Virus record (IMG/VR): IMGVR_UViG_3300017766_003164
Location: 1 to 57,300 of that record
From: a virus
Taxonomy: Duplodnaviria; Caudoviricetes
Length of the DNA: 57,300 nt
Reading direction: 5' to 3' (one strand)
The first letter of the stretch is position 1. The number at the start of each line of letters is the position of its first letter. The position numbers and the translations under genes are program-made. Below, piece by piece: positions 3,483-56,945 of this stretch. The notes beneath the pieces were generated by a model. The model worked only from the letters and a program-made list of their open reading frames with translations. It ran no database searches and was not told the origin of the DNA.

Positions 3483-5275
3483 TACGTTTAAAATACATAC
3501 TTCTAGAATCAAAGCAGATACCTAATGTTTTGTTTATTAGCGATAATGGTGTTGATAAATCTAAAGGATATGCACGGAAATTAATTGCTAGCGGCATTGT
3601 TACTGGTGAGGTTTATACTGCAGATCAACAACCAGCTGACGAATTAGTTCCATTGGTATATTACAATTTAGCATCCGGATATTATGATGCTGTAGTAATT
3701 CAATGTAGCGGATTGTACGATGATGATGAAGAAATAATATTAGAAAAATTTCAATTAATTGTTGATATTTGTAAACGCAAACAAATAGAACCTATTTTTA
3801 TTACATTGCCGACAGATCGATTTATTACGGATGATAAATATACTCGTATTAATATTGTTAAAATTAATTCTTGGATCAAATCAACTACAACATATGTAGA
3901 TTTGTCAAAAATTAACGACGATGTTTATTTTACGCGTGATGGTAAACGGCTAAATAAACAAGGTAATGCTGTAATATATAATCAGTTAAAACGTATATTT
4001 GCTGCATATGAAGATGAAACTACAGATTTACCAGTAGAAACTGAAACTGATCCTAGACAATTACAAAAAGTACAACGTGCATTAAATAAATTAGGTTATA
4101 CAATTGATCCAAAAGAATTAAAACTTGTCAAATCAGGAAAATCTACTGAAAAAGCAATTGAAGAATTTCAATTAAAAAATAGTTTAACTCCAACTGGAGA
4201 ATTAAATAAACAAACACTAACTAAATTATTTTCTTTAAATGCAATTGCAGCAATCGCAATTGATGAACCAAAAGCGATAGAAAAAGTTAAAAAACAATTT
4301 GGATATACCGGCGAAAATACAGATGCAATGGAAGTTATGCAATACTTAGTAGATAAAGGATTATCTGTAGCTGGTGCAGCTGGTATTGCTGGTAACATGA
4401 AAGTTGAATCTAATTTTAAAACTGATGCTGAAGGCGATAATGGAACCTCAATCGGTTTAGTTCAATGGCACGCATCAAACAAAGAAGCATTATTTTCTTG
4501 GTGTGAAAATAAAAAATTAGATCCTTTATCATATGAAGCACAGATGGCATTTTTATGGTTTGAATTACAAACTAAATTTAAAAGCTTGTTAGCATATTTA
4601 CGAACTACAGAAGATCCTAGAGATGCAGGATATCGTTTTGCAGATGATTTTGAAAATCCAGCAGTTATTAGTTCAAAACGAATGGATTATGCAGAAAAAT
4701 TTTTTAATGAATATAATGAAGCTAGTGGAAATACTGGAGAAGATGCTGTTGGTCAGCCGATTGGTACATTAAAATCAATTTGGAATAATGTAAAAACTGC
4801 AACTGCAGTAGGTGGTGTAATGACAGCTGCAGCATTAACAGATTATTTCGGAGAAGGCTCTGGAAAATTACCTGGCGCTTCTAGTGGGGGTGATAATGGC
4901 GATTGGGGAGGAAGCTTATCTAAATTAATTTCAATATTGCCGGCCGGTACCTGGCCAGGAACACATAAACGAGCTAGAAAAACTTCAAAAGGCGGCGGCA
5001 TATCTGACCATTACGTAGGAAGAACAGATTCATATGCTGTCGATTTTATGCTCGATAAAACATTTAAAGGTGATAAAACAGCTGCTACTAATTTTGCAAT
5101 TGCACTTGCGCAAAACGCCGGCAAAAATATTACATCATGGAAACCATATATCAATTCGTATTTAAACATATTTACGCCAGATGGATATCGTGTTCAAATA
5201 ATTTGGTTGTCAATGGTCGGTGGTAATCATTATGATCATGTACATGTAGGTGTAAGAAAACAAAATAAAAAATAA
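3479..5275 (+). CDS. Multidomain cell-wall hydrolase: degenerate SGNH-like, peptidoglycan-binding, phage tail lysozyme-type and Zn-peptidase-like domains
   Basis: PG-binding VQRALNKLGY...TEKAIEEFQLKNSLTPTG; lysozyme GAAGIAGNMKVESNF...SIGLVQW...FENP; C-terminal SDH...AVDF...HYDHVHVG; leader MIRLKYILLE. Confidence 0.8.
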   Translation: MIRLKYILLESKQIPNVLFISDNGVDKSKGYARKLIASGIVTGEVYTADQQPADELVPLVYYNLASGYYDAVVIQCSGLYDDDEEIILEKFQLIVDICKRKQIEPIFITLPTDRFITDDKYTRINIVKINSWIKSTTTYVDLSKINDDVYFTRDGKRLNKQGNAVIYNQLKRIFAAYEDETTDLPVETETDPRQLQKVQRALNKLGYTIDPKELKLVKSGKSTEKAIEEFQLKNSLTPTGELNKQTLTKLFSLNAIAAIAIDEPKAIEKVKKQFGYTGENTDAMEVMQYLVDKGLSVAGAAGIAGNMKVESNFKTDAEGDNGTSIGLVQWHASNKEALFSWCENKKLDPLSYEAQMAFLWFELQTKFKSLLAYLRTTEDPRDAGYRFADDFENPAVISSKRMDYAEKFFNEYNEASGNTGEDAVGQPIGTLKSIWNNVKTATAVGGVMTAAALTDYFGEGSGKLPGASSGGDNGDWGGSLSKLISILPAGTWPGTHKRARKTSKGGGISDHYVGRTDSYAVDFMLDKTFKGDKTAATNFAIALAQNAGKNITSWKPYINSYLNIFTPDGYRVQIIWLSMVGGNHYDHVHVGVRKQNKK

Positions 5276-9342: not shown

Positions 9343-9903
9343 ATGGCAAAAAAAGAACAAGTTCCAGAAAACATTCAAAAACAATTTAATAAAGTACAAT
9401 TTAAGCCAGGGGAGATAGTATTCTTTACCTGGCTTGGTACTAAAAAATACGGTTATGTTAAAGCAACTAAAGAAACTAATTGGGGTATTCAATATACGGT
9501 TGAAGCAAATGGTACTAGGTATCCGTGTGGCATTCAAATCAAGGGGCATAAAACAACGTATACAACGGGATGCATCTATGCCGATGAAACTAGAGCATAT
9601 GGAGCCGAAGAACTTGAGAGACGTTGCCAAACCGGACACAAAAGCACATATTCAGAAGTTATTAGAGAGTCCGGTAGGACAACGGATGAAAGCCGAAGCA
9701 GTAATAGAAATGTCGGAAGCGTATCTGACAATACTAGCAGAAAGACAAAGAAGTCCAAAGCTAACCGTGTCGGAAAGAATGGTATTCTCGATGGCAATGA
9801 TGGAGTGCAGTCAAACAATACAAAGAAACGAAAAAATTCTGAACTCGATTCAGCAATCCAACGTCAACGAGACTTTTTAAATGGATTTGTTAAACGAGAC
9901 TAA
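9343..9903 (+). CDS. Hypothetical protein (SH3-like N-terminus, low-complexity C-terminus)
   Basis: ORF 9337..9903 with ATG at 9343; FKPGEIVFFTW...YGYV...YTVE. Confidence 0.7.
   Translation: MAKKEQVPENIQKQFNKVQFKPGEIVFFTWLGTKKYGYVKATKETNWGIQYTVEANGTRYPCGIQIKGHKTTYTTGCIYADETRAYGAEELERRCQTGHKSTYSEVIRESGRTTDESRSSNRNVGSVSDNTSRKTKKSKANRVGKNGILDGNDGVQSNNTKKRKNSELDSAIQRQRDFLNGFVKRD
9578..9880 (+). CDS. Possible overlapping (nested, alternate-frame) 100-aa gene
   Basis: Part of ORF 9434..9880; ATG at 9578 preceded by GGGA; product looks amphipathic-helical; region is visibly more GC-rich. Confidence 0.4.
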   Translation: MPMKLEHMEPKNLRDVAKPDTKAHIQKLLESPVGQRMKAEAVIEMSEAYLTILAERQRSPKLTVSERMVFSMAMMECSQTIQRNEKILNSIQQSNVNETF

Positions 9904-10856
9904 TATTTAGATTGGGCAAATATTTGCTTAAGTTGATAAAATTTCCATTTCTTAGCCATATCAGTTGGATCAGCTGGAATACTCATTTTATTTTGTTTTA
10001 ATAATTGTTTGTATTGTTCTAAGGTTTTAACTTCAGTTTTAAATACAAATGCCCCGGGTTTGTCAAAGGATAACAAATTATCCAATTGTTTAATATCAAA
10101 ATTCAATAAACCAGTTTGTCTAGTTTTCCATTGTTTAACTGCTTCTTTACCATATATCTTTTCTAAAATACCAGCTTTGTCTGCAGTATTGATAACTTTG
10201 TTAAATGATTCTGCATTGTATACAGGAGGAAGTTTAACGGTTACGCCGGGAATTAAACCGGTTTTAATTTCTTTTCCTATTTTAGCTTGTATGCCCCCGG
10301 TACCATCTTTTTCCATTTGACGTAATACTGGTCCAGCTTCTTTTGCAGTTGCTACATCTAGATGAGCAATAAGCCAATCAGCTGACTTTTTACCTCGCTT
10401 AAATTGATTAAATATGCGATTAAAAACTCTTTCTCGTATTAATTTAAGAATCTGCGGATCATCAAGTACGTTAAATATTCTATTCCGATCTTCTTTTGAA
10501 AGCGTTCCTTTTTCATAGCGTCGTTGTACGCTTTGTTTAAATTTAGCTAAACCTTTTTCACTTGAAAGATCTTTATGAAATCTAACTATATCGCCTATAG
10601 ACATTCTAGCTAGTTGTGCTTCTGCATTTGCAACTCCACTTTTTGAAAATCTTCTATACACCCATCTCAGACTTGGTATTGCCAATGCAGCTATACTTAG
10701 AGCAATTATTACATATCGATAAGTTTGACTAACTGGCCCTGCAGAGTTATCATTTTTTGATTTATTAGGATCGACGTATACTAGTCCGGTTTGTTCTTGT
10801 AACAATGATTTTTTAATTATATGATCTAGTATAATAGCTGACTGTTTATTTTCCAT
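9900..10856 (-). CDS. Hypothetical protein with one transmembrane segment
   Basis: 318 aa; IIKKSLLQE leader-like motif; TM YVIIALSIAALAIPSL followed by basic residues. Confidence 0.8.
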   Translation of the reverse strand: MENKQSAIILDHIIKKSLLQEQTGLVYVDPNKSKNDNSAGPVSQTYRYVIIALSIAALAIPSLRWVYRRFSKSGVANAEAQLARMSIGDIVRFHKDLSSEKGLAKFKQSVQRRYEKGTLSKEDRNRIFNVLDDPQILKLIRERVFNRIFNQFKRGKKSADWLIAHLDVATAKEAGPVLRQMEKDGTGGIQAKIGKEIKTGLIPGVTVKLPPVYNAESFNKVINTADKAGILEKIYGKEAVKQWKTRQTGLLNFDIKQLDNLLSFDKPGAFVFKTEVKTLEQYKQLLKQNKMSIPADPTDMAKKWKFYQLKQIFAQSKY

Positions 10857-12018
10857 ATGATAATTTTTCCTTTGCTTTTTGATATCCTGAATCTGATGAC
10901 ATTCTATTAAGTTTAGAATCTACATAATCTTCTATATCCATTCCTAAATCTACATATATTTTGTCCCATACTTTATTAGATACATCTTGAGCCGTAAAAA
11001 ACGTTCCTAAATGCGCAGCTGTTTTAGTTCCTAGTACACTCATTTTCAATGTTCCATTTCCGATTTTTTTTAGAATGCCTTTTATGCCTTTTGATGATGC
11101 TCGAGCAGTTGCCATTGCAAGTTCATTTTTAGCTCGAGCTTTAAAATATGCATCTAAATTACGTTTAATTAAGTTGTTATTTTCAACTAATTCCTGTACA
11201 GCATATACTTCAATTTTAGTCAAAAGATTGTATTTAGATGTTGCTAATTTTTCTGCTAAAATTGCCATTCCTTCTGCCCCTAAACGTTTTATGAATGGTA
11301 TCTTTGTTATACCTTTTAATGCAGCCGGCAACAATGCAAATATAGTTGAATAACCTGCATTTAAACGATTTCCTTCGTTCCAATATGCAGCTGCATCAGC
11401 TAACATGATGCCAGATGATATTAGTAATCCGGCACCTGGTATGAATGATGTTAAGATTGATAATGTTAAAAAATATTGATGTTTGAATTCTGGATCCATT
11501 AATGAACGTTTCATCCATGTATCCCATGCAAGTTCTCCACCGGGAGTTGGTTGTTGTGCTTGATCTACATCACGTTTATACCATTTGTCTACCCATATTA
11601 ATTTATCAAAAAGTGGTTTAAGACTGGTATTAGATACTCCTATATTGTTTAAATGAGTTATAACAGTTTTGATATATTTTAAAGAAATAGGTCCATATTT
11701 TAAATTCGTACCAACTTCAATATATGATGCAATATATTGAATAATATTCTTTCCGGAAATTTTATTGAATATTTTTTGTATAATATCAAACTGTTTTTTG
11801 GTTTTAATTGAACGAAGTGCTTTAATAACTTTAACTTCATCATCCCATAACCAACCTTTTGCATTATATATAGTTTTTGCAATTTTATATTCTGATGGAT
11901 ACTTTTCTTTGTATGCATCTAATGAATATTGATTAAAAGACTTCGTTGCAAAAAGTTTCGCATCTCGTTTACTAGGATCTGTGATTTGTTCTGCAAGTAA
12001 CGTTTTTAGTTTTATCAT
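10846..12018 (-). CDS. Annexin-like repeat plus pre-toxin-like hydrophobic hairpin protein
   Basis: Start MIKLKTLLAE at 12018, downstream of the minus-strand box at 12029-12036; IAKTIYNAKGWLWDDEVKVIKAL...GKNI is annexin-like; SFIPGAG...ADAAAYWNEGNRLNAG...ALLP. Confidence 0.7.
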   Translation of the reverse strand: MIKLKTLLAEQITDPSKRDAKLFATKSFNQYSLDAYKEKYPSEYKIAKTIYNAKGWLWDDEVKVIKALRSIKTKKQFDIIQKIFNKISGKNIIQYIASYIEVGTNLKYGPISLKYIKTVITHLNNIGVSNTSLKPLFDKLIWVDKWYKRDVDQAQQPTPGGELAWDTWMKRSLMDPEFKHQYFLTLSILTSFIPGAGLLISSGIMLADAAAYWNEGNRLNAGYSTIFALLPAALKGITKIPFIKRLGAEGMAILAEKLATSKYNLLTKIEVYAVQELVENNNLIKRNLDAYFKARAKNELAMATARASSKGIKGILKKIGNGTLKMSVLGTKTAAHLGTFFTAQDVSNKVWDKIYVDLGMDIEDYVDSKLNRMSSDSGYQKAKEKLSYGK

Positions 12019-12069
12019 TTCCATATTAATAAATATGGTCATATACGTAAACTTTATTTTTAAATTTGG

Positions 12070-12128
12070 TTGGATATTGTTGCTGTATTTTATATATTAT
12101 ATAGTATAATTAACCAGTTAAACATTTA
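12070..12128 (+). promoter_or_regulatory. Early-type promoter plus conserved 21-bp leader, copy 1
   Basis: TTGGA-N18-TATATT, then ATAGTATAATTAACCAGTTAA (12101-12121) and CATTTA. Confidence 0.75.
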
Positions 12129-12139
12129 AAAATAAAGTT

Positions 12140-12676
12140 ATGAAAAAATCCTTTATCATCTTTGCATTAAGTTTTGTAAGTAATGCCTTTACTCAAACTT
12201 ATGATTATGATCCGTTTGCTGATGTATCAAATAAAAGTATTAAATTTATTGAATCATTAGATTCGGTAGATTATGCTAAAATAAGCAATGACATTCTAAT
12301 TAAATTAAATGCTCATAGAAAAGCTAATGGTTTAAAGCCTGTTACTTCTAATAAAGATATGGTTAGTTATGCTAATTTGCATACTAAGCAAATGATTAAT
12401 GATTCTGTATATAATCACTCAAATCTAAATAACGGGGCGTACAAAGCCGAAAATATCATGTTAACTCATTTGTTTGGTGCATTTCTATCAGTAGATGATG
12501 AATACATGAAAAGTATCGATGATATTATGATGAATTCATGGAAACGATCTAAAGGTCACAATGTTAATATGTTGTTGCCAGATGTTACGCAAGTAGGTAT
12601 TGCAGTATACTCCAAAGCAACCGTAAAGAATGGCGTATATAGTTATATTATAGAAGCAACCATGGTATTGAAATAA
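12140..12676 (+). CDS. Exported CAP/SCP domain protein
   Basis: Signal peptide MKKSFIIFALSFVSNAFTQ; LNAHRKANGLKPV...HS...AENI...WKRSKGHNVNML...VGIAV. Confidence 0.85.
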   Translation: MKKSFIIFALSFVSNAFTQTYDYDPFADVSNKSIKFIESLDSVDYAKISNDILIKLNAHRKANGLKPVTSNKDMVSYANLHTKQMINDSVYNHSNLNNGAYKAENIMLTHLFGAFLSVDDEYMKSIDDIMMNSWKRSKGHNVNMLLPDVTQVGIAVYSKATVKNGVYSYIIEATMVLK

Positions 12677-12694
12677 TCAGAATATATAAACAGT

Positions 12695-12720
12695 AAAAAA
12701 GCCCCCGTTAAGGGGCTTTT
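12695..12720. terminator. Bidirectional intrinsic terminator
   Basis: AAAAAAGCCCC-CGTTAA-GGGGCTTTT between convergent genes. Confidence 0.85.
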
Positions 12721-12731
12721 CTTACATTATA

Positions 12732-14573
12732 TTAAAATGTACATTTCATAGTACGACCATTAAATACTGGCATTGTTTGCGTTGGCATATTTTTAAATAC
12801 TTTTGGTAGTTTTACATTAGGAAGTTTTATTTTTGGCCAACTCCAAAAACTCCATTGAATTCCTCCTTCAAACCCGCCGGCTAATGAAACTACATATTCT
12901 CCTTCGACAGCTTGATCTTTAAGACTCTTCGGCATAACAAGTTGAACAGCAATACCAATTTTAGATACTCTAAATAGACTATAAGTTGCTTCATATTCTG
13001 ATTTCTTTTGTTCAGAATTAGCTCTATCTGCATAAAAAGCCTTAGGTGTTAATTTAGGATTTTTTTCATATGCTGCTTGAAATAAAGGGCCATAATTAGC
13101 AATAGTAAATGTAGTTCCCAAATTTGAGCCGCCTACACTTTCCCATTCAGGTCCAACATTTGCATTTAATTGTGCCGGATTTTTTATTATCTGCGTACTA
13201 TTTTCTGAAATTATTTTTCCTAGATCTTCATTAATTACTCGTTCAGTAAAAGAAGCCATCGATTTACATCGTGCTGCAGCTAATGTTACGTTATTTTTTT
13301 TGTTATATACTTTATTGGTTTTAAATGCAGGACCGGTACCGAAAGATGAATTAACAGTACTGGTTGCTGCATATGTAAAAATATTCATTGATTGTACGTC
13401 AATTGTTTCATTTGGATATTGATTTTGTAATTCAATGATAAATGTTTTAATTTTATCAACCATTTGTACAATGGCTTCTCGCGAATCAACTGTTAATGAT
13501 GTACCATCATCTCCAAAAAAGTTTTTTTGCATTTCTAAATGATCTGCATCTGATACTTCATTTGGTGGATATGAAAATTTGATAATTTCAGGTGTTGATG
13601 TTATAACTTCTTTATTACTTACTCCCTTTGCAGCACCTTTTACAGATATATCACCTTCTTTACTAAAGTATATAACATCTGCTTTTTTTACAATTGTATC
13701 AATATCTAATTTAATAATTTTACCTGCTCTGATACCATCTTGAAACGCTGGTGATTTAAGTTTTGCAAAACACTGAGTTTGAATATCTGATAGCATCTTT
13801 GCACGTGCATTGTTATCAGCTAGTATATTTTGCGTTGTAGCCTCCGGAGAAACTTGAGAACCTTTTTGATTGATTTGTAATGCATTGATCATGTTTTTAG
13901 CAGATGCCTTTGCTAAATTAACATCTTTAAGTGTATAACCACCATTTGGCAGAAATGTATAAGTTTTAGGATCGGTAGATGGTTGTCCTTTTGTTTTTAT
14001 AAAGTTAGTTAAACTAGAATTTTGTCTCGTTATATAATCTGGCATAATAAATACACCAGCATCTGCCGTTTTTCTTAAAGCTACCGGAATTACATTCAAT
14101 GCTGCTTTAAATTGTCCATCTAAATCACTGCTTCCTTTAAGTTGATTGATAACTTCTTGTTGATATCGATCAGCTAAGTCACGTAATTCTTGTTGCGTTT
14201 GTTTAGTCTGTCGACCATCTGATGTTCCGGCTTGTTTTGATTTTTCACCAATATCACCTAATCCATAATATGGATCATTACCACACCATATTAGTAAAGA
14301 TTCTCTAGTATCAGGACCATCATGTTTTCTAAACCATTCCATTACTGGCCCATATATTGCATATTTAGAATAATCTTCTGCAGCGTCGCGTGTTTTGACA
14401 TAGTTAATTATACTATTAATATTAGCATTCTCCCAAGCAATCGTGCCACCCTTTGACCAATCGGCTTTTGAAAGATCTGGTTCTACTTGTTCAATTAATC
14501 TAATAGCCGATTCGTCTAGATTCTTAGTACCGAATCTCAACATGTTTCGTTTAATAATTTCGTGTAAATTCAT
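12732..14573 (-). CDS. Large protein with NMLRFGTKNL leader and a possible OmpA-like peptidoglycan-binding domain
   Basis: 613 aa; NFFGDDGTSLT...IFTYAATS...NNVTLAAARCKSM resembles the OmpA_C N-x-x-L-S-x-x-R-A motif; minus-strand box at 14592-14599. Confidence 0.7.
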   Translation of the reverse strand: MNLHEIIKRNMLRFGTKNLDESAIRLIEQVEPDLSKADWSKGGTIAWENANINSIINYVKTRDAAEDYSKYAIYGPVMEWFRKHDGPDTRESLLIWCGNDPYYGLGDIGEKSKQAGTSDGRQTKQTQQELRDLADRYQQEVINQLKGSSDLDGQFKAALNVIPVALRKTADAGVFIMPDYITRQNSSLTNFIKTKGQPSTDPKTYTFLPNGGYTLKDVNLAKASAKNMINALQINQKGSQVSPEATTQNILADNNARAKMLSDIQTQCFAKLKSPAFQDGIRAGKIIKLDIDTIVKKADVIYFSKEGDISVKGAAKGVSNKEVITSTPEIIKFSYPPNEVSDADHLEMQKNFFGDDGTSLTVDSREAIVQMVDKIKTFIIELQNQYPNETIDVQSMNIFTYAATSTVNSSFGTGPAFKTNKVYNKKNNVTLAAARCKSMASFTERVINEDLGKIISENSTQIIKNPAQLNANVGPEWESVGGSNLGTTFTIANYGPLFQAAYEKNPKLTPKAFYADRANSEQKKSEYEATYSLFRVSKIGIAVQLVMPKSLKDQAVEGEYVVSLAGGFEGGIQWSFWSWPKIKLPNVKLPKVFKNMPTQTMPVFNGRTMKCTF

Positions 14574-14623
14574 ATTGATATCTTTTTTTAAATAAATATC
14601 GTTGTAAAAAAAATAGCATATAG

Positions 14624-14681
14624 TTTGAATTAACTAGTTTATTTCTTATATTAATAGTATAATTAACCAGTTAAACATTTA
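14624..14681 (+). promoter_or_regulatory. Early-type promoter plus conserved 21-bp leader, copy 2
   Basis: TTTGA-N18-TATATT, then ATAGTATAATTAACCAGTTAA (14654-14674) and CATTTA. Confidence 0.75.
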
Positions 14682-14685
14682 CATT

Positions 14686-15108
14686 ATGAAAAAGTTAATC
14701 ATATCTTACATTGTATTTCTTTTTGCATTCAATGCATTTTCTCAAAAGATTACATTTCAATTAAAAGAAAAACGTATTCATTATACAGATATATCTGGTA
14801 ATGATGCAAAGCTTACTAACATCACCGAGCCTACTTCTAGTACATTAACATTTAATATTAAAGACAGTACAATGACTTTACAAAAAAATGGCGAAACTAG
14901 CGTAACAAAACTTTCTAAAATTTCAAAGAAAGGACATCAATACTTTTTTGAATCCGTAGGCAACTATGCTATTGATCAATCAAAATCAGTAATTACATAT
15001 TACATGATTGATTGCAAAAAACAAGTAGGAACTGAAAAGTATGCTAGTTTTTGTATGCCTAACCTAATTCATGTAACTGATTTTAAAGGTTGTGTTTTAA
15101 CTCGTTAA
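14686..15108 (+). CDS. Exported beta-rich hypothetical protein
   Basis: Signal peptide MKKLIISYIVFLFAFNAFSQ. Confidence 0.8.
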   Translation: MKKLIISYIVFLFAFNAFSQKITFQLKEKRIHYTDISGNDAKLTNITEPTSSTLTFNIKDSTMTLQKNGETSVTKLSKISKKGHQYFFESVGNYAIDQSKSVITYYMIDCKKQVGTEKYASFCMPNLIHVTDFKGCVLTR

Positions 15109-15920
15109 AGTTGTTTAACTAATGCATCCATTTTCGGAACAATCGTATCCATTATGTGTTGCATCAATAATTGTTCGTTTTGTTCAGACATAACAGCTCT
15201 ACTTTGTCTTCCTGTTGATTTTACAAAATTTTGTATTGCTGTTTGTAATGATTTATCTGAAGTTCCGCCTTGGGGTGACTTGATGGCTGCCGGAGCAGTC
15301 ATGTAGATTATATAATCACTATATGGTATGCGATAATAAGCAGCAGGAGATACTTTATATGTTTGTCCATCGCTACCTTTAAATGAAAACAGACTCGTAA
15401 CAGCGAATGAGCTCATTACTCCATTATCTGCTAATTTTGAAGTCCACGTTGCAAATCTAGATTTCATTGATTCAGCATATGTATTATTAGTTGCTTTTCG
15501 CATTTGTTTCCATGGACTATTTGCTGGCTGAGCATCTAATGTTTCAGTTAACGCAGTTAACATAGATTTATCAAGTCCATATTGGCCATTAGCAACACTA
15601 CTACGATCAGCAATCAGTTGTCCTTGTGTATTAAAAAGTTTTCCGGCGGCTGGGCCTAATTTTGGAATAAAATTTAAAACTTTTCGATCTGCACTAGTTT
15701 GAGCTGCTGGATTGATTGTCCATTGACAAACTAATTTTCCATTCATATTCATCATCAAAGTTGTACCATTGATAACAAATGACATTGTAGCTATCACGTC
15801 GCCAACTCTAGATTTATATGAGCCTGCAGCAGATACTGCTTCTGTTAAACGTTTAATAGTTGATTTAGATAAATTCTTTACTCCAAATCTAAGCAAATTT
15901 TCAGCTAGAATATTTTTCAT
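15105..15920 (-). CDS. Hypothetical protein with MKNILAENLLRFGVKNLS leader
   Basis: 271 aa; minus-strand box at 15950-15957; AAGGA upstream. Confidence 0.8.
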   Translation of the reverse strand: MKNILAENLLRFGVKNLSKSTIKRLTEAVSAAGSYKSRVGDVIATMSFVINGTTLMMNMNGKLVCQWTINPAAQTSADRKVLNFIPKLGPAAGKLFNTQGQLIADRSSVANGQYGLDKSMLTALTETLDAQPANSPWKQMRKATNNTYAESMKSRFATWTSKLADNGVMSSFAVTSLFSFKGSDGQTYKVSPAAYYRIPYSDYIIYMTAPAAIKSPQGGTSDKSLQTAIQNFVKSTGRQSRAVMSEQNEQLLMQHIMDTIVPKMDALVKQL

Positions 15921-15980
15921 ATGATCCTTAAAGGTTTCGTTTCTTTAATATAAATATATCAGTAAAAAAATACTATTTAT

Positions 15981-16037
15981 TTTGATTTCTAAAAACGTTT
16001 TCTTATATTATAGTATAATTAACCAGTTAATCATTTA
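15981..16037 (+). promoter_or_regulatory. Early-type promoter plus conserved 21-bp leader, copy 3
   Basis: TTTGA-N18-TATATT, then ATAGTATAATTAACCAGTTAA (16010-16030) and CATTTA. Confidence 0.75.
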
Positions 16038-16049
16038 AAAAATAAGAGT

Positions 16050-16667
16050 ATGAAAAAGTTAATCATCTTTGCTTCTATTATTATTTCTAATGCGACTTTC
16101 TCGCAAATATTAAATGACACTATTAATTATTATAATGAAATTACAAAATCAACAGAATTTACAAATATAGCAAATAAATCACAACGATGGAAATCAGATG
16201 TTAAAATCTATATTGATGGTATATATGATTCTGTAGCTAAAACTGAAGTTTATAATGTTATTAATGAATTAAATGAATTGATAAACACCATTAACATAAG
16301 TGTAGTGAATAGTAAAACCGAAGCAAATTTAATTGCATTTTTTGGTTTTTGTAGTGATTACGATAAATTTGAATCCAAAGCAGCACCTTATTCCGGGAAT
16401 AACTATGGTTTATTTGTTGTATATTCAAAAAATAACATAATAACTAAAGGTAGTTTTTATGTAGATGTTGTTAGATGCGGGTGGTTAGATACCACCTTGA
16501 TTGATAAAACAAAAAAACATTTAGTTAGAGAAGAGCTAACACAATCTTTAGGTCTTTACAACGATTCTATGAAATATCCTAATAGTATTTTTTATCAAGG
16601 ATTCACATTTACAAATGAATATTCTGATTTAGATAAAAAAATCATCAGAATTCACTATAATGATTAA
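16050..16667 (+). CDS. Exported DUF2927-like (zincin-like fold) protein
   Basis: Signal peptide MKKLIIFASIIISNATFSQ; HLVREELTQSLGLYNDS...SIFYQ...SDLDKKIIRIHY. Confidence 0.75.
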   Translation: MKKLIIFASIIISNATFSQILNDTINYYNEITKSTEFTNIANKSQRWKSDVKIYIDGIYDSVAKTEVYNVINELNELINTINISVVNSKTEANLIAFFGFCSDYDKFESKAAPYSGNNYGLFVVYSKNNIITKGSFYVDVVRCGWLDTTLIDKTKKHLVREELTQSLGLYNDSMKYPNSIFYQGFTFTNEYSDLDKKIIRIHYND

Positions 16668-16670
16668 TGA

Positions 16671-17462
16671 TTATACTTTTTTAACACCTAACATTTGACC
16701 CAATTTAGGATATCCTAGATACATTAAATAATCAGCATAACCTTTGAATTCAGGACAATATCCATCATATGTTCTTATTTTAATAAAATCTTTTCCAGGA
16801 CTTAACTTTTGGGGTGTTAGTGTTTTTGGTATGGCTTCGCTCGATTCAACTCTAGGATAATAGTAATCAATCCCTGAACCGCCGGTCTTTGATTGTATTG
16901 GTATTATCAAATCAGCTTTACTTGGTTTTATTGAAAATTGTTTTGCCTCCCCATCTTCAAGAAATGGTTTATTAATATCTCCAGAATAATTCGTTGTTAT
17001 TTCTCTATTAAATAAATATAAAAACTGTCCGTTGCCATTAGTTGGGTCTCCCCAATAACCACCGGCATACCAAGCTCTTGGTACAAAACTACCAACTATA
17101 ACACCATCAACACTATTGTTAGGTAAAGAAAATCTTTCCATTTTTTCATATGTAAATGCTGTTTTTTGAGTAATTAAAATTGTCTTACCATTAATACCAC
17201 TTAGCCCCGATCCCTCACCGCCAAGATAATTTACCATTGTTGGACTAAAAGGTTTAGCTTCAAATCCATAATTACCAGTTTTTGGATAAAATACTATGAA
17301 TTTATTATAATCAGGTATTGACATAACTCCCGGAGCTGCACCTCCACCGATTTGTGGCGGCGTTTCGGTTTGTTCAATCAATCTAGATTTATCAGCCTCA
17401 GATAAATTCTTTACTCCAAATCTAAGCAAGTTTTCAGCTAAAATGTTTTTCATTTTGATCAT
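16671..17462 (-). CDS. Hypothetical protein with MKNILAENLLRFGVKNLS leader
   Basis: 263 aa; leader DNA nearly identical to that of 15105..15920; minus-strand box at 17495-17502. Confidence 0.8.
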   Translation of the reverse strand: MIKMKNILAENLLRFGVKNLSEADKSRLIEQTETPPQIGGGAAPGVMSIPDYNKFIVFYPKTGNYGFEAKPFSPTMVNYLGGEGSGLSGINGKTILITQKTAFTYEKMERFSLPNNSVDGVIVGSFVPRAWYAGGYWGDPTNGNGQFLYLFNREITTNYSGDINKPFLEDGEAKQFSIKPSKADLIIPIQSKTGGSGIDYYYPRVESSEAIPKTLTPQKLSPGKDFIKIRTYDGYCPEFKGYADYLMYLGYPKLGQMLGVKKV

Positions 17463-17526
17463 TATTATTTCCTTTAAGGTTTCTTTTCTTTCATATAAAT
17501 ATCATTGAAATAAAAAAACTAGTAAT

Positions 17527-17555
17527 TTTGAAATACGAAATATTTTTCTTATATT
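17527..17555 (+). promoter_or_regulatory. Putative early (host-sigma) promoter
   Basis: TTTGA-N18-TATATT upstream of uvsE. Confidence 0.65.
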
Positions 17556-17569
17556 ATAAAAAAAATCCT

Positions 17570-18601
17570 ATGATTCGTTATGGTTATTGCTGTATTAATA
17601 CACAGCTTTCTAACGCTGGTATCCGTACCGGTCGTGCAATGATTGACCGCAAGTTTAAGATTGGCGGTTTGCAACTTGCTTCCGACATTGCACTTGCCAA
17701 TGCTCGCGATTTACTAACTATTCTGCAATGGAACGAACAACATGGTATTCGCTTGTTCCGTATTGGCTCCGAGATATTTCCTCGTTGGAATCATTATGAG
17801 TTACGTGACTTACCCGGCATTGATGAAATTACTCATCATCTGCGTATTGCAGGTGACTATGCACGTGCTCATGGTCATCGTCTTACAACACACCCTGGTC
17901 CATTTCATATCCTAGGTAGTCCCGATGACGTAGTTGTTGACAATTCTATTATCGGTCTTGAACGACATTCTGAGATGTTTGACCTTATGGGTTTTGCACC
18001 TAGCTTTGACAATCTTATCAATATTCATATAGGTGCTACTTACAATGATAAGCCTGGTACGGTTGCACGTTGGTTGTTTAACTATCATCGCTTATCAGAT
18101 TCTTGTCGTGCACGTTTAGTTGTTGAGAATGATGACAAGGCTTCTATGTATTCGGTGCGTGAGCTGTATGAGTATTTGCATGTTCCGACACGTATTCCTA
18201 TTACATTTGACTATTGGCATCACACTTTTAATACTGGTGACATATCCGAACAAGAAGCATTCTTCATGGCTCGCGACACTTGGGCTATTCATGGTGCCAC
18301 GCAATGTACTCATTACAGCGAGTCACGTCGACGCGAGAATCAACTTCTTATTGAGCGTATGTTTGAGCATCATGGTATTTCTTTAGACACTATCGAACAA
18401 TGGCCGACATTCCACAAACAATACAAGGAGTTTACCAAGATCAAAGAGCAAGCTCATGCCGACTTCATTACGCAGCTTCCGAATACATATGATGTTGATG
18501 CATTAGATATCGAGGTAGAAGCCAAGGCTAAGGAGTTAGCTTTATCGCAACTTAACATTACATGTTGTCAAGAAAATAATATACCACTGATTTTAGATTA
18601 A
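17570..18601 (+). CDS. uvsE: UV damage endonuclease UvsE/UVDE
   Basis: MIRYGYCCIN...GIRLFRIGSEIFP...RLTTHPG...INIHIG...RLVVENDD...ITFDYWHH...HYSES...AHADFI...EVEAKAKELA. ATG at 17570 preferred to TTG at 17528. Confidence 0.93.
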   Translation: MIRYGYCCINTQLSNAGIRTGRAMIDRKFKIGGLQLASDIALANARDLLTILQWNEQHGIRLFRIGSEIFPRWNHYELRDLPGIDEITHHLRIAGDYARAHGHRLTTHPGPFHILGSPDDVVVDNSIIGLERHSEMFDLMGFAPSFDNLINIHIGATYNDKPGTVARWLFNYHRLSDSCRARLVVENDDKASMYSVRELYEYLHVPTRIPITFDYWHHTFNTGDISEQEAFFMARDTWAIHGATQCTHYSESRRRENQLLIERMFEHHGISLDTIEQWPTFHKQYKEFTKIKEQAHADFITQLPNTYDVDALDIEVEAKAKELALSQLNITCCQENNIPLILD

Positions 18602-33796: not shown

Positions 33797-35455
33797 ATGG
33801 CAGAATCAAGAATGACATACAATGAAATTGGTTACGTAGGTCCAACTCCTACAGTATTTAAAAAAATTGATTCTAGTGATGTTACAGTTAATCCATTTCA
33901 ATCATTTAAAACTTGGACAGTATATTCTGGCAGTGCTACTAGCAGTGCATTACCACTAACGGCAATTTATTCTGATACAACAAATTTACCAGCATTAGGA
34001 TCTGAATTGACTATTAATGATTCTTCAAATATTGATAGTTCATTACAGACTATAACATATTTCTCAGTTAATCATCAATACTATAAATATAAAAAATATC
34101 CAGCACAAACTTTCGGACCTACTAACTTAAATCAAACTAAAAAACATTTATATCAGTCTGCGTCAATACTTTCATTTCCACAAATACGTGTCGGCGAAGG
34201 AATAAAGCCGGCATCATTTAGATTAACAGGTAGCTATACTGAAGTTGGAGGTATATATGGATCTAGTTCATATGGATCTAGTTCATATGGTAATGTAATA
34301 GAATTATATATACATTCAGATCTTTATGGTAATTTGTATAATACTTCATTTAATACACAAACAATTGTTACTAAGTCGTTAATGTATGAAGAAGGATTTA
34401 ATGAATATTTTGATGCAAATCGTCCGGAATACGTTTCAAGTGGCGTAACATATATACCGGGCGTTACTACAACTACAGGTGTTACTCAATCATATGGATA
34501 TGCGGCTAATTTTAATGGTAATGGATATATAAAAACAGAAATACCGGGATATTATGATCGTAATCATGATTACGCTATTTCATTTTTTATACGTGCAGAA
34601 AATACCGGAAGTAATTCAAATATAATCATAACTAAAGCTTCTAGTTCATTAACGCCACAATATCCATTTAAAATATCAGTTGATACTGCAGGATATTTAG
34701 AATACTTTATTTCTGCAAACGCTGGATTAAATTCTGCTGGATTTAATCCTGAATTATTATTAACATCTGCAGTGCCATTAGACTTAGTAAATTACGTTCA
34801 TGTTGTATGTCAAAAAAGTGGCAGTGTTATGCAATTGTATACTAATGGAACGTTAGAATCGTCAATATCTAGTACATTATTAATTGATACCCAATCTCCA
34901 TTTACCGCATCAGGCAGAATTGATAATAAAGATCCATTATTCATAGGTGGATTTGAAAGTGGTTCTAATTTAACAGGAACTATTGATGAAATTCGAATAT
35001 TTAATCGAGCATTAACAGCAACAGAAATTGGATATTTAGCAGATCGTACCGAAGGTGGGTCATTTATGCAAACTAATCATGTAGGTAATGTATTTGCACG
35101 ACAAGGTATAGCGGTTATTTCAACACCTGATTATCGCTTTCATAATATTTTAAATGCTCCATATACGGCATCTTATAAAAGCACAGTAACTACTTACGAA
35201 TTAGGTGTTGTTGCAAATGCTGATGCTGGAGATTTTAATATGTCAATGAATTTAACATTGACTGATGATAGCGACGTTACGTATAAAAACTTTGTAACCG
35301 GTAGTGCATTTGCTCCGTATATAACTACAATTGGTTTATATGACGATGCTGGTCAGTTATTGGCTATTGGTAAATTAGCACAACCAATACGTAAACGAAT
35401 GGATGTTGATATGAACTTTTTAGTTAGATTAGATTTAGATAGGAATTTAAAATGA
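33797..35455 (+). CDS. LamG/concanavalin A-like domain structural protein
   Basis: AANFNGNGYI...AISFFIR...HVVCQK...LYTNG...LFIGG...GTIDEIRIFNRALTATEI; C-terminus paralogous to 32418..33740. Confidence 0.8.
   Translation: MAESRMTYNEIGYVGPTPTVFKKIDSSDVTVNPFQSFKTWTVYSGSATSSALPLTAIYSDTTNLPALGSELTINDSSNIDSSLQTITYFSVNHQYYKYKKYPAQTFGPTNLNQTKKHLYQSASILSFPQIRVGEGIKPASFRLTGSYTEVGGIYGSSSYGSSSYGNVIELYIHSDLYGNLYNTSFNTQTIVTKSLMYEEGFNEYFDANRPEYVSSGVTYIPGVTTTTGVTQSYGYAANFNGNGYIKTEIPGYYDRNHDYAISFFIRAENTGSNSNIIITKASSSLTPQYPFKISVDTAGYLEYFISANAGLNSAGFNPELLLTSAVPLDLVNYVHVVCQKSGSVMQLYTNGTLESSISSTLLIDTQSPFTASGRIDNKDPLFIGGFESGSNLTGTIDEIRIFNRALTATEIGYLADRTEGGSFMQTNHVGNVFARQGIAVISTPDYRFHNILNAPYTASYKSTVTTYELGVVANADAGDFNMSMNLTLTDDSDVTYKNFVTGSAFAPYITTIGLYDDAGQLLAIGKLAQPIRKRMDVDMNFLVRLDLDRNLK
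34255..34290 (+). repeat. 15-bp in-frame tandem repeat (YGSSS) x2
   Basis: ATATGGATCTAGTTC twice, then ATATGG. Confidence 0.8.
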
Positions 35456-35988
35456 TACGTTTGAAACGTTTATTATTGGAAATGTCTGATTCAGATATAA
35501 ATCGTTGTTTAGATAAAATTAAAAACAAACAATTTAAAATCATTGGCGCCGGAGATAATGGTCGCGTTTATGAAATTGACGGAGAAGATAAAGTTTTTAA
35601 AATTACTAAAGAACAAGATGAGTATGATGTTGCAGAGCGCATAGTTAATCAATCAGATAAATTTACAACATTTATTCCAGTATATTATGTTAATGGAACG
35701 GATATGTATATCATGGCAAATGCTGAACAATTGTCAGGACGAATGAAACAAGAAGTTGATTCATTTATGCAAGAATTTAATAGTTTTGCTCGAGAACAAG
35801 GTGGAGAAGTTTCAATATTTGAATTTGTACAACAAACTGATTCTGTTAATGCACGATTAGATAATTTTTTAAATGCTTTACAACGAGATGTTGAACGTTT
35901 AAATATTCCAGAATTTGATTTAGATTTAGATTTCAGATCTGACAATTTGATGACGTGGAATGGGAAAATGGTATTAGTTGATTGGTAA
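35452..35988 (+). CDS. Minimal protein-kinase-like protein
   Basis: Gly loop IIGAGDNGRVY, KVFKIT, EYDVA, catalytic loop DFRSDN, terminal VLVDW; leader MIRLKRLLLE. Confidence 0.75.
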   Translation: MIRLKRLLLEMSDSDINRCLDKIKNKQFKIIGAGDNGRVYEIDGEDKVFKITKEQDEYDVAERIVNQSDKFTTFIPVYYVNGTDMYIMANAEQLSGRMKQEVDSFMQEFNSFAREQGGEVSIFEFVQQTDSVNARLDNFLNALQRDVERLNIPEFDLDLDFRSDNLMTWNGKMVLVDW

Positions 35989-38337: not shown

Positions 38338-39279
38338 ATGAAGAATCTAAAACTATTACAATTATTAGAATCAGTTTTAGGTAAAGGAAAACCTACATCT
38401 GGTGATAACATTGCATTCTTCTCTCCATTTGTTTCTCACTACAAACCAAAATTAGAAATCAATATTCAAACAAATCACGCCGGAGAAAATACTTGGCATT
38501 GTTGGATATCTGATAAGAAAGGTCGAAGCATTGTTTCACTTTTCAAACAACTCAATTTACCAAAAGAGCGTTTCGAACAACTTAATAGAATAATTGAATC
38601 TGCTAAGTATAGAACAACCGCAACTGAAACAAAAACGGCAACAATTCAACTGCCACAAGAATATGCTCCACTTTGGATTAAAAAAGCAACACCGGATTAT
38701 CGCAATGCAATTCATTATTTAACTAGCCGCGGCATTACGGTATTTGATATTTTAAAGTATCGTATTGGGTATTGCGAAGTGGGAGAATATTCTGGAAAAA
38801 TAATTATTCCTAGTTATGATGCACAAGGTCAACTCAATTATTTTGTTAGCCGAGCATTTTACAAAGCAGATAAATTTAAACATAAGAATCCAAAAATTTC
38901 AAAAGATATTATTGGTTTTGAAATGACAATCAATTGGGCTGAACCAATTATACTTTGTGAAGGGTCATTTGATGCAATTGCAGTTAAACGCAATGCAATT
39001 CCACTCTTTGGTAAAATAATTCAACCTGCTTTACAAAAGAAAATCATTGAAGAACGAGTGAAAAACATTTACATTTGCTTAGATGCTGATGCATTAAAGA
39101 ATGCACTTTCAATTGCAGAACGTTTCATGGCAGAAGGTTTAAATGTTTACTTTGTTGAATTGCAAGAAGAAGATGCATCAGAATTAGGATTTCAAAAAAT
39201 TACAGAAATTATAGAAAATACTGACTTATTAACATTTGAACGTGTTATGGAGTTAAAAATGGGACTTATATGGACATAA
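38338..39279 (+). CDS. DNA primase (DnaG-like, TOPRIM)
   Basis: YLTSRGI...YRIGY...IIIPSY...ILCEGSFDAI...ICLDADA...DASELG. Confidence 0.88.
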   Translation: MKNLKLLQLLESVLGKGKPTSGDNIAFFSPFVSHYKPKLEINIQTNHAGENTWHCWISDKKGRSIVSLFKQLNLPKERFEQLNRIIESAKYRTTATETKTATIQLPQEYAPLWIKKATPDYRNAIHYLTSRGITVFDILKYRIGYCEVGEYSGKIIIPSYDAQGQLNYFVSRAFYKADKFKHKNPKISKDIIGFEMTINWAEPIILCEGSFDAIAVKRNAIPLFGKIIQPALQKKIIEERVKNIYICLDADALKNALSIAERFMAEGLNVYFVELQEEDASELGFQKITEIIENTDLLTFERVMELKMGLIWT

Positions 39280-42200
39280 AACGAATTGATGTTGGAATAG
39301 ATAAAATTGATAAAATTTATCATGTTTCAGATATTCATATTAGAACATTGAAAAGGCATCGTGAATACCGAGAAGTTTTCCAAAATCTTTTTGAATGTAT
39401 TGCAAAAACGAGCACGGAAAATAGTATCGCAGTTGTTACGGGTGATATTGTTCATAGCAAATTAGATATGTCTCCGGAGTTAGTTCAAATTCTTGTTGAA
39501 TTTTTTAATGGATTCAAAATACCTACCATTGTTATTTTAGGTAATCATGATATGAATCTAAACAATATGCATCGCGTAGATGCTGTTAGTCCTGTGTTAG
39601 ATGTTATTCAAAATCCTAATATCATATTTGTTAAAGATAACGGACTTTTTGAATTAGGCGGAGTTACGTGGAATCATATGGCAGTTGATAAGACCCCTGC
39701 AGAATACATACGAGCTAAAGATTTTTCCGGTAAATATAAAATTGCACTTCATCATGGTGCTGTTAATACTGCTAAAACAGATATTGGTTATCAAATATCA
39801 AATGAACATGTAACTACAGAATTATTTGCAGGACATGATATTACTTTGCTAGGAGACATTCATAAGCCAGCACAATTCTTAGATGCGGAACGTACGATTG
39901 CATATCCGGGGTCATTGATACAACAAAATCACGGAGAAGCATTAGACCATGGAATATTGGTTTGGAACGTTGAAGACCGAACTGCTGAATTTGTTCAAAT
40001 TGAAAATGATTATGGGTATGTTACATTAGAAACTCAAGGTGAAAAAATAGTTTCACATCCACATCGAATGCCGCGTAAACCTAGAATCCGTATTAAATTT
40101 AACGGCACTAGTGCAGCAGATATGAAAAAGCTTGTTGCAACAATTCGTAAAAAATATGATGTACAAGACATAACAATTCAGCGAACAATTGAACATGCAA
40201 ATTCTGCAACTTCATCTAGTTTAGCAATAGGAAATGTACGAGATGTTGAATATCAAAATACATTGCTGTCAGATTATATCGATTCACACTTTCCACAAGC
40301 AACTGCAGAAGAAGTAGATGCAATTCGACACATTAATCGAACAATCAATTCAAAGCTCCCAGCAGTGGAATCAATACGACATACAACATGGCATCCTATA
40401 TCATTTGAATTTGATAACATGTTTTCATACGGTGAAGGCAATGTTATTAACTTTGAAACGTTACAAGATGTGTGCGGATTATTTGCAGCAAATACATCTG
40501 GTAAGTCATCTTTGCTTGATGCAATAACATATACTATTTTTGATAAATGTAGTAAAACGGGTAAAGCAAATGAAGTTTTAAACAATAAAAAAACATGGTT
40601 CCGCGGAGTATTTCGTTTTGAAATGAATGGCGTTACTTATACAATTGAGCGACGAGGAACACAAAATAAAAAGAAAGAGACACACGTTAAAGTTGATGTT
40701 GAATTTTATACTGACGCAGAAAATTTAAACGGGGAAGAACGCAGTGAAACAAATAAAAACATACGTCGTTATTTAGGTACGTATGATGATTTTATTTTAA
40801 CTGCATTTTCACTTCAAGCTGATAATAACAACTTTATCGAAAAGTCACAAAAAGAACGCAAAGACTTACTTTCACAGTTTTTAGATATTACGGTATTTGA
40901 ACAACTTTATCAACTTGCAGCAGATGAAATAAAAGAAACAGCAGGTCGTTTAAAGGATTATAAAAAAACAGATTTTGCTGAATTGATTATATCGGCTGAT
41001 ACGATTATATCAGACAATCAAGAAACAATTACCGCATTAGAAGAACAAGAAGATGTATTGCATGATCAACGTAATGCCTTGCAAGAACAGATTGTTGAAT
41101 TGATTGAAACAAAAATGCCGACAACATATAACGGCCCAGATATCAAAGAATTAAAACGACAAGAACAAGCATTAATCAAACAAATTGAATCCATACAAAC
41201 AGACATTGAAACTGCAGAACAAGACTTAGAGTCATTGATTGCTAAAATTGATGAACAAGAAACGCAACTTGCAGAATTTAATGTTACGGAATTAAATGAA
41301 CAAACAAAATTATACTCACAAAAAGAACATTCAGTTAACATACTTTTACAAAAGTTTCGACAACAACAGGAGATAGTAAATGCAAAACAAGAAAAAATTA
41401 ATCACCTTTCAGACCATGAATATGATCCGCAATGTAAATACTGTACATCTAACGTTTTCGTACAAAATGCAATTGAAGCACAGAATACAATTGATGCGGA
41501 TAGAGACATATTAAATTCAACCAAACAAAAGATTACGGCATTGAATCAAGAAATTGAAACATTATCGCCAATATTTGAACAAACAGAACAATACAATTCT
41601 TTACAAAATTCAATTAAGACAAACAAGATTACTTTGGAACGCAATGAATTGCAACTTCAAATTTTAGAAAGCGATCTTCAAACCCGAGAATCAGAATTAG
41701 AAACTGCAATTGAACGACAAGAATCATTTCGTCAAAATGAAACTGCAATTAAACACAATCAAACAGTTGACACTCATATTGATACATGTAAACAAAAAAT
41801 AACGGCAATATCGGAACAACTAAAAACTATTCAAAATCAAATTAAAAACAATTACGGTGCAATAGAAGTAGCAAAAACACAAAAAGCTACGGCAATGCAA
41901 AACTTAGAACGTTATCGACAATTAGAAACGGAATACAAGGCATATGAATATTATTTAGAATCAGTTAAGCGTGATGGTATTCCGTATGAATTAATTACAA
42001 AAGCTCTTCCTAAAATAGAAGCTGAAATAAACAATGTGCTTAATCAAATTGTTGATTTTAACATGGTAATGAATACCGATGGCAAAAACATTAACGGATA
42101 TATTATTTATGATGAAGATAATTTTTGGCCACTAGAATTAACGTCAGGTATGGAACGTTTCATTTCATCATTAGCAATTCGCATAGCACTTATAAACGTA

Positions 42201-56835: not shown

Positions 56836-56945
56836 TTTAGAATACGCTATTCACTCTATATAATATAGCGTCGCATAAATTATTTATTCTTATTAAGATT
56901 CTCAATAATCTTATTTCCAAAAAACAAAATTTAAGGGGAAAACAA

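Follow-up and report, generated by a model that had tools for sequence, protein, structure and literature searches.

Why does a phage that keeps almost all of its genes on one strand hold, within a single locus, three pairs of genes that face each other? The locus lies in IMG/VR virus record IMGVR_UViG_3300017766_003164, of which we analysed positions 1 to 57,300 (57.3 kb, hereafter the window; G+C about 31%, completeness rating 34%). In each of the three pairs a plus-strand gene for an exported protein (S1, S2 and S3, hereafter partners) converges on a minus-strand gene for a protein that begins with a common leader (L1, L2 and L3, hereafter cargo). We find that the stretch 9900-17530 is a hyperplastic region with three exchangeable two-gene cassettes, that the regular pairing of a leader gene with an exported partner is real and general, and that the pair is the unit of gain, loss and replacement. 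The phage itself is T4-like, roughly 160 kb and uncultured, and its host is probably a member of the freshwater Bacteroidota. By analogy with phage T4, the leader is probably a capsid-targeting propeptide on hypervariable cargo that would be packaged in the head and ejected.

The anatomy of the locus is simple. The six open reading frames (ORFs) lie across 12140-17462 exactly as a preliminary description of this DNA had placed them, in three convergent pairs that interrupt a mostly plus gene order (59 of the 66 crudely called genes of the window are on the plus strand). From stop to stop, the genes of pair 1 are 55 nt apart, with a GC hairpin in the spacer, those of pair 2 share 4 nt and those of pair 3 have 3 nt between them, in line with the earlier remark that two pairs overlap or abut.

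A leader peptide on otherwise unrelated proteins

The cargo proteins share a leader with the consensus MKNILAE, N(M/L)LRFGxKNLSE and then [LI]-x-E about 20 residues on. As had been noted from the three minus-strand genes, the leader is common to them, and a degenerate DNA pattern for N-x-L-R-F-G-x-K-N-L matches the window in those genes only (three matches versus 0.05 expected; no shuffle out of 100 gave as many). The pattern matches 112 stretches in 2.9 million viral contigs, and 129 of the 145 matches, with the window counted, lie 5-13 codons after an ATG, while 16 do not. The resulting leader-headed set comprises 115 distinct proteins, 110 of them complete and 121-715 amino acids (aa) long with a median of 236.5; stripped of the leader, 108 bodies fall into 58 BLAST clusters. 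With a profile built from 71 leaders, 942 of 1.84 billion cluster representatives match at E<=1e-3, 269 of them at E<=1e-10, and in 144 of the best 150 the match begins at residue 1-4. The same DNA pattern, run as a control over bacterial and archaeal genomes and not used for host assignment, gave at least 120 stretches; 9 of the 120 listed pass a crude N-terminal test, and the one true leader among the prokaryotic matches listed sits on a 3.7-kb contig that was assigned to a metagenome-assembled genome.

Selection acts on the peptide and not on the DNA, because the invariant Arg of the leader is encoded by all six of its codons, and Leu and Gly by all of theirs. Two protease-type sites frame the peptide: [LI]-x-E stands immediately before the invariant Asn in 101 of 103 distinct leader versions, and a second [LI]-x-E follows 19-24 residues on in 100 of 104 proteins, compared with about 10% expected from the bodies of the same proteins. 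By sequence, none of 76 leader proteins matches any Pfam family (E<=1e-3), and PHROGs hold no family for L1, L2 or L3. The bodies are mostly basic (median isoelectric point, pI, 8.97; 53 of 76 above 8), which would suit proteins packed with DNA.

Of the three cargo proteins in the window, L1 can be read furthest. It has 43 relatives among 5.8 billion proteins, none of them named, and its structural model has a mean predicted local distance difference test score (pLDDT) of 59.8, being good over residues 330-550. The top Foldseek matches of its C-terminal domain in the PDB are nearly all OmpA-like at marginal E-values (4e-4 to 3e-2; template modelling score by target 0.36-0.56), and the BFVD returned uncharacterised proteins of uncultured phages plus one 'OmpA-like domain-containing protein' at E 8e-3. 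The L1 family conserves N428, L431 and R435, which we take to be the N..L..R motif of OmpA, and ends in a basic tail with an invariant Cys. L1 has no Pfam match to an OmpA-like domain, and the OmpA-like body of the preliminary description has support at the level of the fold only, at marginal E-values; its wider label, envelope-acting, has weak backing, from the fold match of one protein, the 613-aa L1. Its comparison with toxin and immunity proteins finds no toxin domain to build on in the 76 leader proteins (Pfam, E<=1e-3). L3 has no usable match in the Protein Atlas (Atlas model pLDDT 0.32).

Pairing, control signals and exchange of the cassettes

A convergent neighbour with a signal-peptide-like start faces 73 of 99 leader genes and only 5.4% of other genes (Fisher p = 2.5e-58). 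The mature parts of the partners are mostly acidic (median pI 5.76), and no lipobox was found in 64 of them. Pfam matches among 76 partners comprise 14 CAP, 4 DUF2927, one UvdE and one Rhomboid, and the last two indicate that some calls of a partner are mere neighbours. In the window, all three plus genes start with Sec-type signal peptides; S1 matches CAP (PF00188, E 1.6e-12, 48.7 bits versus a cut-off of 21.1), S3 matches DUF2927 (PF11150, E 3.8e-19, 70 bits versus a cut-off of 26.2), and the AlphaFold2 model of S2 is all-beta with nine strands (pLDDT 78), in agreement with the CAP, beta-rich and DUF2927-like bodies proposed before. The function of S2 is not readable from its model, for which the best PDB match has E 0.012 and none reaches E<=0.001. 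PHROGs place S1 in a 'sporulation protein' family and give S2 a weak 'anti-repressor' match that we disregarded.

Cargo and partner also vary together. Comparisons of cassettes with the same cargo have the partner cluster in common in 69 of 79 cases, versus 209 of 2771 otherwise, so that each minus-gene family does tend to travel with the same plus-gene family, as the preliminary description proposed, and the partners are not assorted at random. An iterative profile search resolved 47 cargo clusters and 23 partner clusters, in which partner family and cargo size go together: the CAP partner family (23 members) occurs only with cargo of at least 334 aa, in 9 cargo clusters, and a partner family of ~140 aa (17 members) with cargo of 160-245 aa, in 12 cargo clusters. 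An OmpA-like domain common to all CAP-partnered cargo was considered and dropped, being borne out by neither profile nor hhalign comparison; the profile of the L1 C-terminal domain gave E 0.003-0.01 for three CAP-partnered cargos, in a search where long proteins are favoured by chance.

The two genes of a unit had been described as differently controlled, and this holds well beyond the window. In the window, the ATATTTAT(A) late box lies 26-40 nt 5' of each minus-gene ATG and 17-43 nt 5' of about 18 further genes (about 21 in total), tail and head genes included, among them neighbours of the baseplate wedge, portal and terminase genes. Over the pairs as a whole, 67 of 76 L genes have the late box in front of them, compared with 11 of 62 S genes; for an AAGGA-type ribosome site the counts are 62 of 76 for L and none of 62 for S. 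The promoter-type box of the S genes, which is unlike the late box, also stands 5' of the UvdE gene. Upstream of S1, S2 and S3 stands the same 21-bp element, ATAGTATAATTAACCAGTTAA, without a mismatch (12101-12121, 14654-14674 and 16010-16030), confirming at three sites the shared element first seen there; the record has exactly three copies of its 20-mer core on that strand, none on the opposite one and none of the reversed control. Between the stops, a strong hairpin (minimum free energy <= -8, between A- and T-runs) separates the genes in 51 of 76 pairs, and 19 of the 76, window pairs 2 and 3 among them, overlap or abut without room for a terminator.

The 21-bp element contains the palindrome TTAAC-CA-GTTAA (12109-12120, 14662-14673 and 16018-16029), of which a near-copy (TTAACTAGTT) lies at about 14630, and a TTAA-N4-TTAA element is found 5' of 35 of 62 partner genes on other contigs. 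The palindromic element looks like a candidate site for a dimeric regulator rather than an RNA hairpin.

Exchange of whole pairs can be followed in a close relative (locus L086), which matches the window along its flanks at 95.8% and 96.4% identity (stretches of 2.2 and 3.2 kb). Within the locus itself, alignment is limited to the control regions, S2 and the ends of L2. Of the three pairs in L086, one joins a 286-aa cargo to a 143-aa partner, one a 545-aa cargo to a CAP-like partner, and one is the counterpart of pair 2; cassettes 1 and 3 of the window are replaced there as whole pairs, and control regions cross-match at 72-90% identity between unrelated bodies. In a public sequencing run (X4), a contig of depth 38.6 links 15970 with 17544 through an insert of 28 other letters, its shorter side being 104 letters long, and thereby takes out S3 and L3 exactly between two control regions; the depth of that run over 16822-17222 is 0.49, compared with about 40 nearby. 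Two further joints (9908 to 17537 and 10140 to 17538), either of which would take out the whole locus, have sides below 30 letters and were not relied on. The replacement of whole pairs in L086 and the loss of cassette 3 in run X4 bear out the idea that the units are swappable modules. Where both genes of a pair have counterparts, the cargo diverges faster than the partner and both faster than the flanks: amino acid identity is 42% for cargo and 76% for partner in L086, and 61% versus 83% and 48% versus 69% in other hits inferred, from matching lengths of their longest contigs, to lie on the same contigs.

The phage, the locus borders and neighbouring genes

The window contains a gene for a T4 gp21-type prohead protease, near its right end and adjoining portal-, scaffold- and terminase-like genes, as well as a gp6-like baseplate wedge gene, and all five of the large leader-bearing records encode both PF03420 (gp21) and PF07068 (gp23 capsid). 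By its protease, the closest cultured relative is Flavobacterium phage vB_FspM_immuto (56% identity). Two uncultured relatives, G001 (158 kb) and G002 (159.6 kb), are complete with direct terminal repeats and are colinear with the window, their core proteins being 50-90% identical to those of the window. One strand holds 198 of 208 crudely called genes in G001 and 195 of 207 in G002, and the leader genes belong to the small remainder on the opposite strand. Across the window, G001 and G002, ~95% of the genes are one-stranded, early-type and late-type alike; in T4, early and late genes run largely in opposite directions. The variable locus has the same two borders in all three, a 186-aa gene and the UvdE gene, and its content differs each time, which makes it a hyperplastic region at a constant site. 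UvdE of the window is 79% identical to its counterparts in G001 and G002.

Two further minority-strand genes lie at the left edge of the locus. The 318-aa gene has a homologue at the equivalent place in L086. The 398-aa gene probably has its true start, MIKLKTLLAEQ, at about 12018, because the late box at 12029-12036 falls inside the called ORF; it is 30% identical to a 440-aa gene of G001 that stands in an operon with a leader gene. Table 1 collects the features.

Table 1. Features of the cassettes, their control regions and their surroundings in the window
Feature	Position	Strand	Remarks
S1, 178 aa	12140-12676	+	Sec-type signal peptide and CAP domain
L1, 613 aa, leader-tagged	12732-14573	-	OmpA-like C-terminal fold (marginal match); basic tail with invariant Cys
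S2, 140 aa	14686-15108	+	Signal peptide and small nine-strand beta protein
L2, 271 aa, leader-tagged	15105-15920	-	Fold without assignment
S3, 205 aa	16050-16667	+	Signal peptide and DUF2927
L3, 263 aa, leader-tagged (MIKMKNILAEN...)	16671-17462	-	Fold without assignment
Bidirectional intrinsic-terminator-like hairpin	12695-12721	.	A-run, AGCCCC/GGGGCT stem, T-run, between S1 and L1
Divergent control region	14574-14685	.	Late box 14592-14599 (-) for L1; TTTG-N-TTATATTA box 14624-14653 and 21-bp element 14654-14674 (+) for S2
Divergent control region	15921-16049	.	Late box 15950-15957 (-); promoter-like box 15981-16010; 21-bp element 16010-16030 (+)
Control region	17463-17569	.	Late box 17495-17502 (-) for L3; TTTG-N-TTATATTA box 17527-17556 for UvdE gene
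318-aa minority-strand gene	9900-10856	-	Edge of variable locus; N-terminus ..HIIKKSLLQEQ like short leader-like starts in relatives
398-aa minority-strand gene	10846-12042	-	Called ORF; hydrophobic segments
UvdE-type UV damage endonuclease	17528-18601, probable start 17570	+	PF03851, E 1.5e-53; right border of locus
T4 gp21-type prohead protease (Peptidase_S77, PF03420)	54933-55562	+	E 3.4e-34; presumed processing enzyme

Shorter starts of the form MI(K/R)LKxLLxE stand on several further proteins of these phages, the 398-aa minus gene included. Among the tail genes of the window, a conserved 178-aa gene outside the cassettes (35452-35988) starts MIRLKRLLLE, and its G001 counterpart MIRLKTLMRE. 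In L086 a 148-aa minority-strand gene of the locus (4236-4682, -) starts MPIKLKNLIQ and contains the stretch ...YINHSETPNC...NYW..., which looks by eye like a SET-domain signature. G002 has two small main-strand genes amid replication and recombination genes (61342-62039; loci L143), both without an exported partner: a 91-aa protein with a full leader (profile E 1.6e-12) and, next to it, a 130-aa protein with only MIKLKNLLRE. In G001 a leader gene lies inside a four-gene minority-strand operon (63159-67516; loci L135), the first gene of which (381 aa) keeps a decayed copy, ..LLAKKLLDINTKNLTES (profile E 0.043), so that leaders can degenerate.

The 163-aa gene at 56008-56499, which stands beside the protease gene in all relatives, starts MMNVFKKLYKDFFGINEQ, a sequence loosely like the leader. 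We dropped it as a leader-bearing head protein when the leader profile gave no significant match; the protein may have a targeting peptide of its own. Elsewhere in the window, 39270-42416 encodes a large SbcC-like nuclease subunit, its phosphoesterase part at the N-terminus (phrog_77, E 9e-53), and a 153-aa Ser-rich ORF at 56837-57298 (-), antisense to an open-ended acidic plus-strand ORF, is probably no gene.

Possible functions of cargo and partner

What might such a pair do? The closest likeness is to the internal proteins IPI, IPII, IPIII and Alt of T4 and the T-even phages, in which a short constant N-terminal peptide, the capsid-targeting sequence (CTS), likewise precedes otherwise unrelated proteins. 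For the comparison we used what we take to be the T4 CTS sequence. The cassettes and the T4 system have in common [LI]-x-E at places of the gp21-cut type (only the motif was compared), a gp21-type protease with a gp23-type capsid, late signals, basic bodies, a variable locus and a fast, arms-race-like divergence. As set out in PMC9026906, T4 gp21 cuts after L/I-X-E, and the 10-residue N-terminal CTS loads unrelated internal proteins; passages of PMC3012670 give the CTS as all that these proteins have in common, and PMC9026906, PMC3012670 and PMC5694885 describe how it carries them onto the scaffolding core. Homology to T4 internal proteins was found neither in Pfam (0 of 76 leader proteins) nor in PHROGs (the three L proteins). 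In contrast to the T4 internal proteins, the L genes run against the main direction of a genome that is otherwise one-directional, one L body has what may be a peptidoglycan-binding-type fold, and each L gene faces a co-varying exported partner, for which we found no counterpart described in T4. We read the cargo half as a distant variant of the T4 internal-protein system, and the regular, co-varying exported partner is the new part: as a near-obligatory companion it is absent from the T4 picture. We found no description of leader or pairing in the open-access literature.

The late box, the T4-type protease in the window and the CTS-like leader with its [LI]-x-E sites lead us to infer packaging in the virion. 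L would be made late, from the ATATTTATA box that head and tail genes use and with the strong AAGGA ribosome site; its leader would dock it onto the scaffolding core of the prohead; a gp21-type protease would then remove the leader by cutting after Glu, and the mostly basic body would be retained in the head and ejected with the DNA. S would be expressed from a different, host-type promoter without an AAGGA site, as a soluble Sec-exported protein without a lipobox. Recombination would run in the conserved outer ends of the cassette, with late box and leader forming one of these ends and the other made up of promoter, 21-bp element and signal peptide. In the periplasm, the exported S would meet the matching cargo of a later kin phage and neutralise it, giving a type-specific superinfection exclusion. 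A putative wall-binding fold in L1, which lacks an export signal, would agree with a protein that the virion brings to the periplasm, where an exported partner would need it to be; this is a single protein with a weak match. Taken whole, the favoured reading of CTS-like tagged cargo with a paired exported neutraliser in swappable cassettes strikes us as evenly balanced between right and wrong. That the pairing serves to exclude kin phages type by type is, by analogy, a tentative and somewhat doubtful proposal, and the full version, a polymorphic kin-exclusion system in which a head protein ejected into the periplasm is disarmed by a specific, early exported protein, we consider rather unlikely.

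Other phage systems offer parts of this picture. T4 Spackle binds gp5 (PMC7677548) and T4 Imm binds the tape measure protein gp29 (preprint 10.64898/2026.03.06.709160); as in those cases, a protein that the resident phage places in the envelope early on would encounter one that an incoming kin phage delivers from its virion. Spackle and gp5, and Imm and gp29, are unlinked, single and conserved, whereas the genes of a cassette are adjacent, multiple per genome and polymorphic. Polymorphic toxin and immunity systems resemble the cassettes in their swapping, in the unvarying N-terminal address in front of a hypervariable body, and in the cognate gene next door; unlike such systems, the cassettes show no toxin domain (0 of 76), the partner is exported and the tagged protein has no export signal, and the carrier is a phage of virulent type. 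The exchange itself recalls the promoter early stem-loop (PeSL) regulatory cassettes, which mediate modular shuffling in T4-like hyperplastic regions (PMC2839356; PMC4122927): here too, small conserved control sequences flank unrelated ORFs, and the indel and replacement junctions of relatives fall in them. Unlike in PeSLs, the conserved unit is a divergent pair of late and host-type promoters extended into leader and signal peptide, the terminator lies between convergent stops instead of being joined to an early promoter, and what is exchanged is a gene pair of fixed make-up.

Several observations weigh against the reading of packaged cargo with a periplasmic neutraliser. T4 internal proteins pass on ejection into the cytoplasm of the host (PMC9026906), so a periplasmic partner could not meet cargo delivered in the T4 manner; and since the conserved recombination ends flank both bodies, co-variation is expected from linkage alone. 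The leader, with about 30 residues, is about threefold longer than the T4 CTS and has an invariant core without homology to it, and its profile finds no match among the constant proteins of head and core in the window, in G001 or in G002. Among 50,697 phage records, megablast with the locus and tblastn with L1, with L3 and with the leader by itself found no cultured carrier, and Flavobacterium phage vB_FspM_immuto, when searched, does not carry the leader. One leader gene stands alone on the main strand among the replication genes of G002, and the 26 of 99 leader genes that lack a convergent signal-peptide-like neighbour include 13 with a convergent neighbour without such a start, 10 with a same-strand neighbour and 3 at a contig end. 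The partner family differs in 10 of 79 same-cargo comparisons, one CAP family serves 9 cargo clusters, and when the L1 family was compared by hhalign with two further families of CAP-partnered cargo, the leader alone was shared. The counted contigs are relatives and hence non-independent events, and the gene and signal-peptide calls come from rough, home-made heuristics.

Much of this would follow if the two genes were merely linked. L could then be injected cytoplasmic cargo for anti-defence or host take-over, like T4 IPI* and Alt, and S an unrelated accessory envelope protein, perhaps a modifier of receptor or envelope or a general exclusion factor, in a locus that gathers arms-race genes. 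The conserved parts are indeed the outer ends (leader with late box, signal peptide with promoter), the deletion joint sits in control regions, the hairpin insulates the 51 pairs as separate transcription units, the CAP family goes with cargo clusters that are unrelated to one another, and the cytoplasmic action of T4 internal proteins described in PMC9026906 points the same way. Linkage leaves unexplained why a signal-peptide gene faces leader genes 14-fold more often than genes elsewhere (73 of 99 versus ~5%), why CAP partners go with cargo of at least 334 aa and the ~140-aa family with cargo of 160-245 aa, and why a protein without an export signal seems to have an OmpA-like, peptidoglycan-binding-type fold; this account as a whole, injected cytoplasmic cargo beside an unrelated accessory envelope protein, we hold to be improbable, if seriously to be reckoned with. 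A complex prediction for mature L1 and mature S1, from alignments of 49 and 25 rows and run without controls, gave no answer (0.00 twice) and is no evidence either way.

The remaining accounts of the cassettes fit fewer of the observations. In phage T5, the llp gene adjoins the gene for the receptor-binding protein. The leader might plug variable host-binding proteins onto the tail or baseplate, with S as an early receptor blocker after the precedent of T5 Llp (10.1101/2022.06.28.497910), and the late signals, the hypervariable bodies and the two to three different L genes per genome would agree with such an adaptor. We find it very unlikely, given the two [LI]-x-E sites that frame the leader, the mostly small and basic bodies (median 236.5 aa, pI 8.97), the absence of fibre-like repeats and known receptor-binding domains in 76 Pfam scans, the distance of the locus from the baseplate genes, the lack, unlike in Llp, of a lipobox in all 64 S proteins, and a putative OmpA-like fold that would be unexpected on the virion surface. 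If L were instead a late non-virion protein that reaches the wall after holin action, and S its periplasmic regulator like the T4 antiholin RI, the late signals, the putative OmpA-like fold without export signal and the periplasmic partner would find a place; three different pairs per genome, hundreds of unrelated bodies, a leader whose protease-type sites would have no role, and a locus in which Pfam and PHROG searches found neither holin nor endolysin make this most improbable. As little credence can be given to the idea that the convergent layout is itself the function, late transcription of L shutting off early S or the reverse. The 19 of 76 pairs without terminator room, window pairs 2 and 3 included, would allow it, and we reject it as a general purpose because a strong bidirectional terminator-like hairpin lies in 51 of 76 pairs; nor would it explain the leader, the signal peptides or the co-variation of families.

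Whichever function the proteins have, the locus shows cleanly, in nature, how modules are exchanged as pairs at conserved control sequences. Were the leader a packaging tag, no fewer than 942 protein clusters would become candidate injected phage proteins, a large pool of possible counter-defence or envelope-acting factors, and the leader itself would be a portable address label for loading the heads of Bacteroidota phages. If the pairing is functional, the cassettes would be the first type-specific pairs of injected protein and periplasmic neutraliser encoded as cassettes in phages, and would offer a direct handle on phage-phage competition in lakes. Should kin exclusion prove true, the leader-tagged bodies, hundreds of them, would form a large set of injected proteins that act on the envelope and whose specific inhibitors come ready-made, and these phages would fall into exclusion types, two or three to each phage, trading cassettes to escape.

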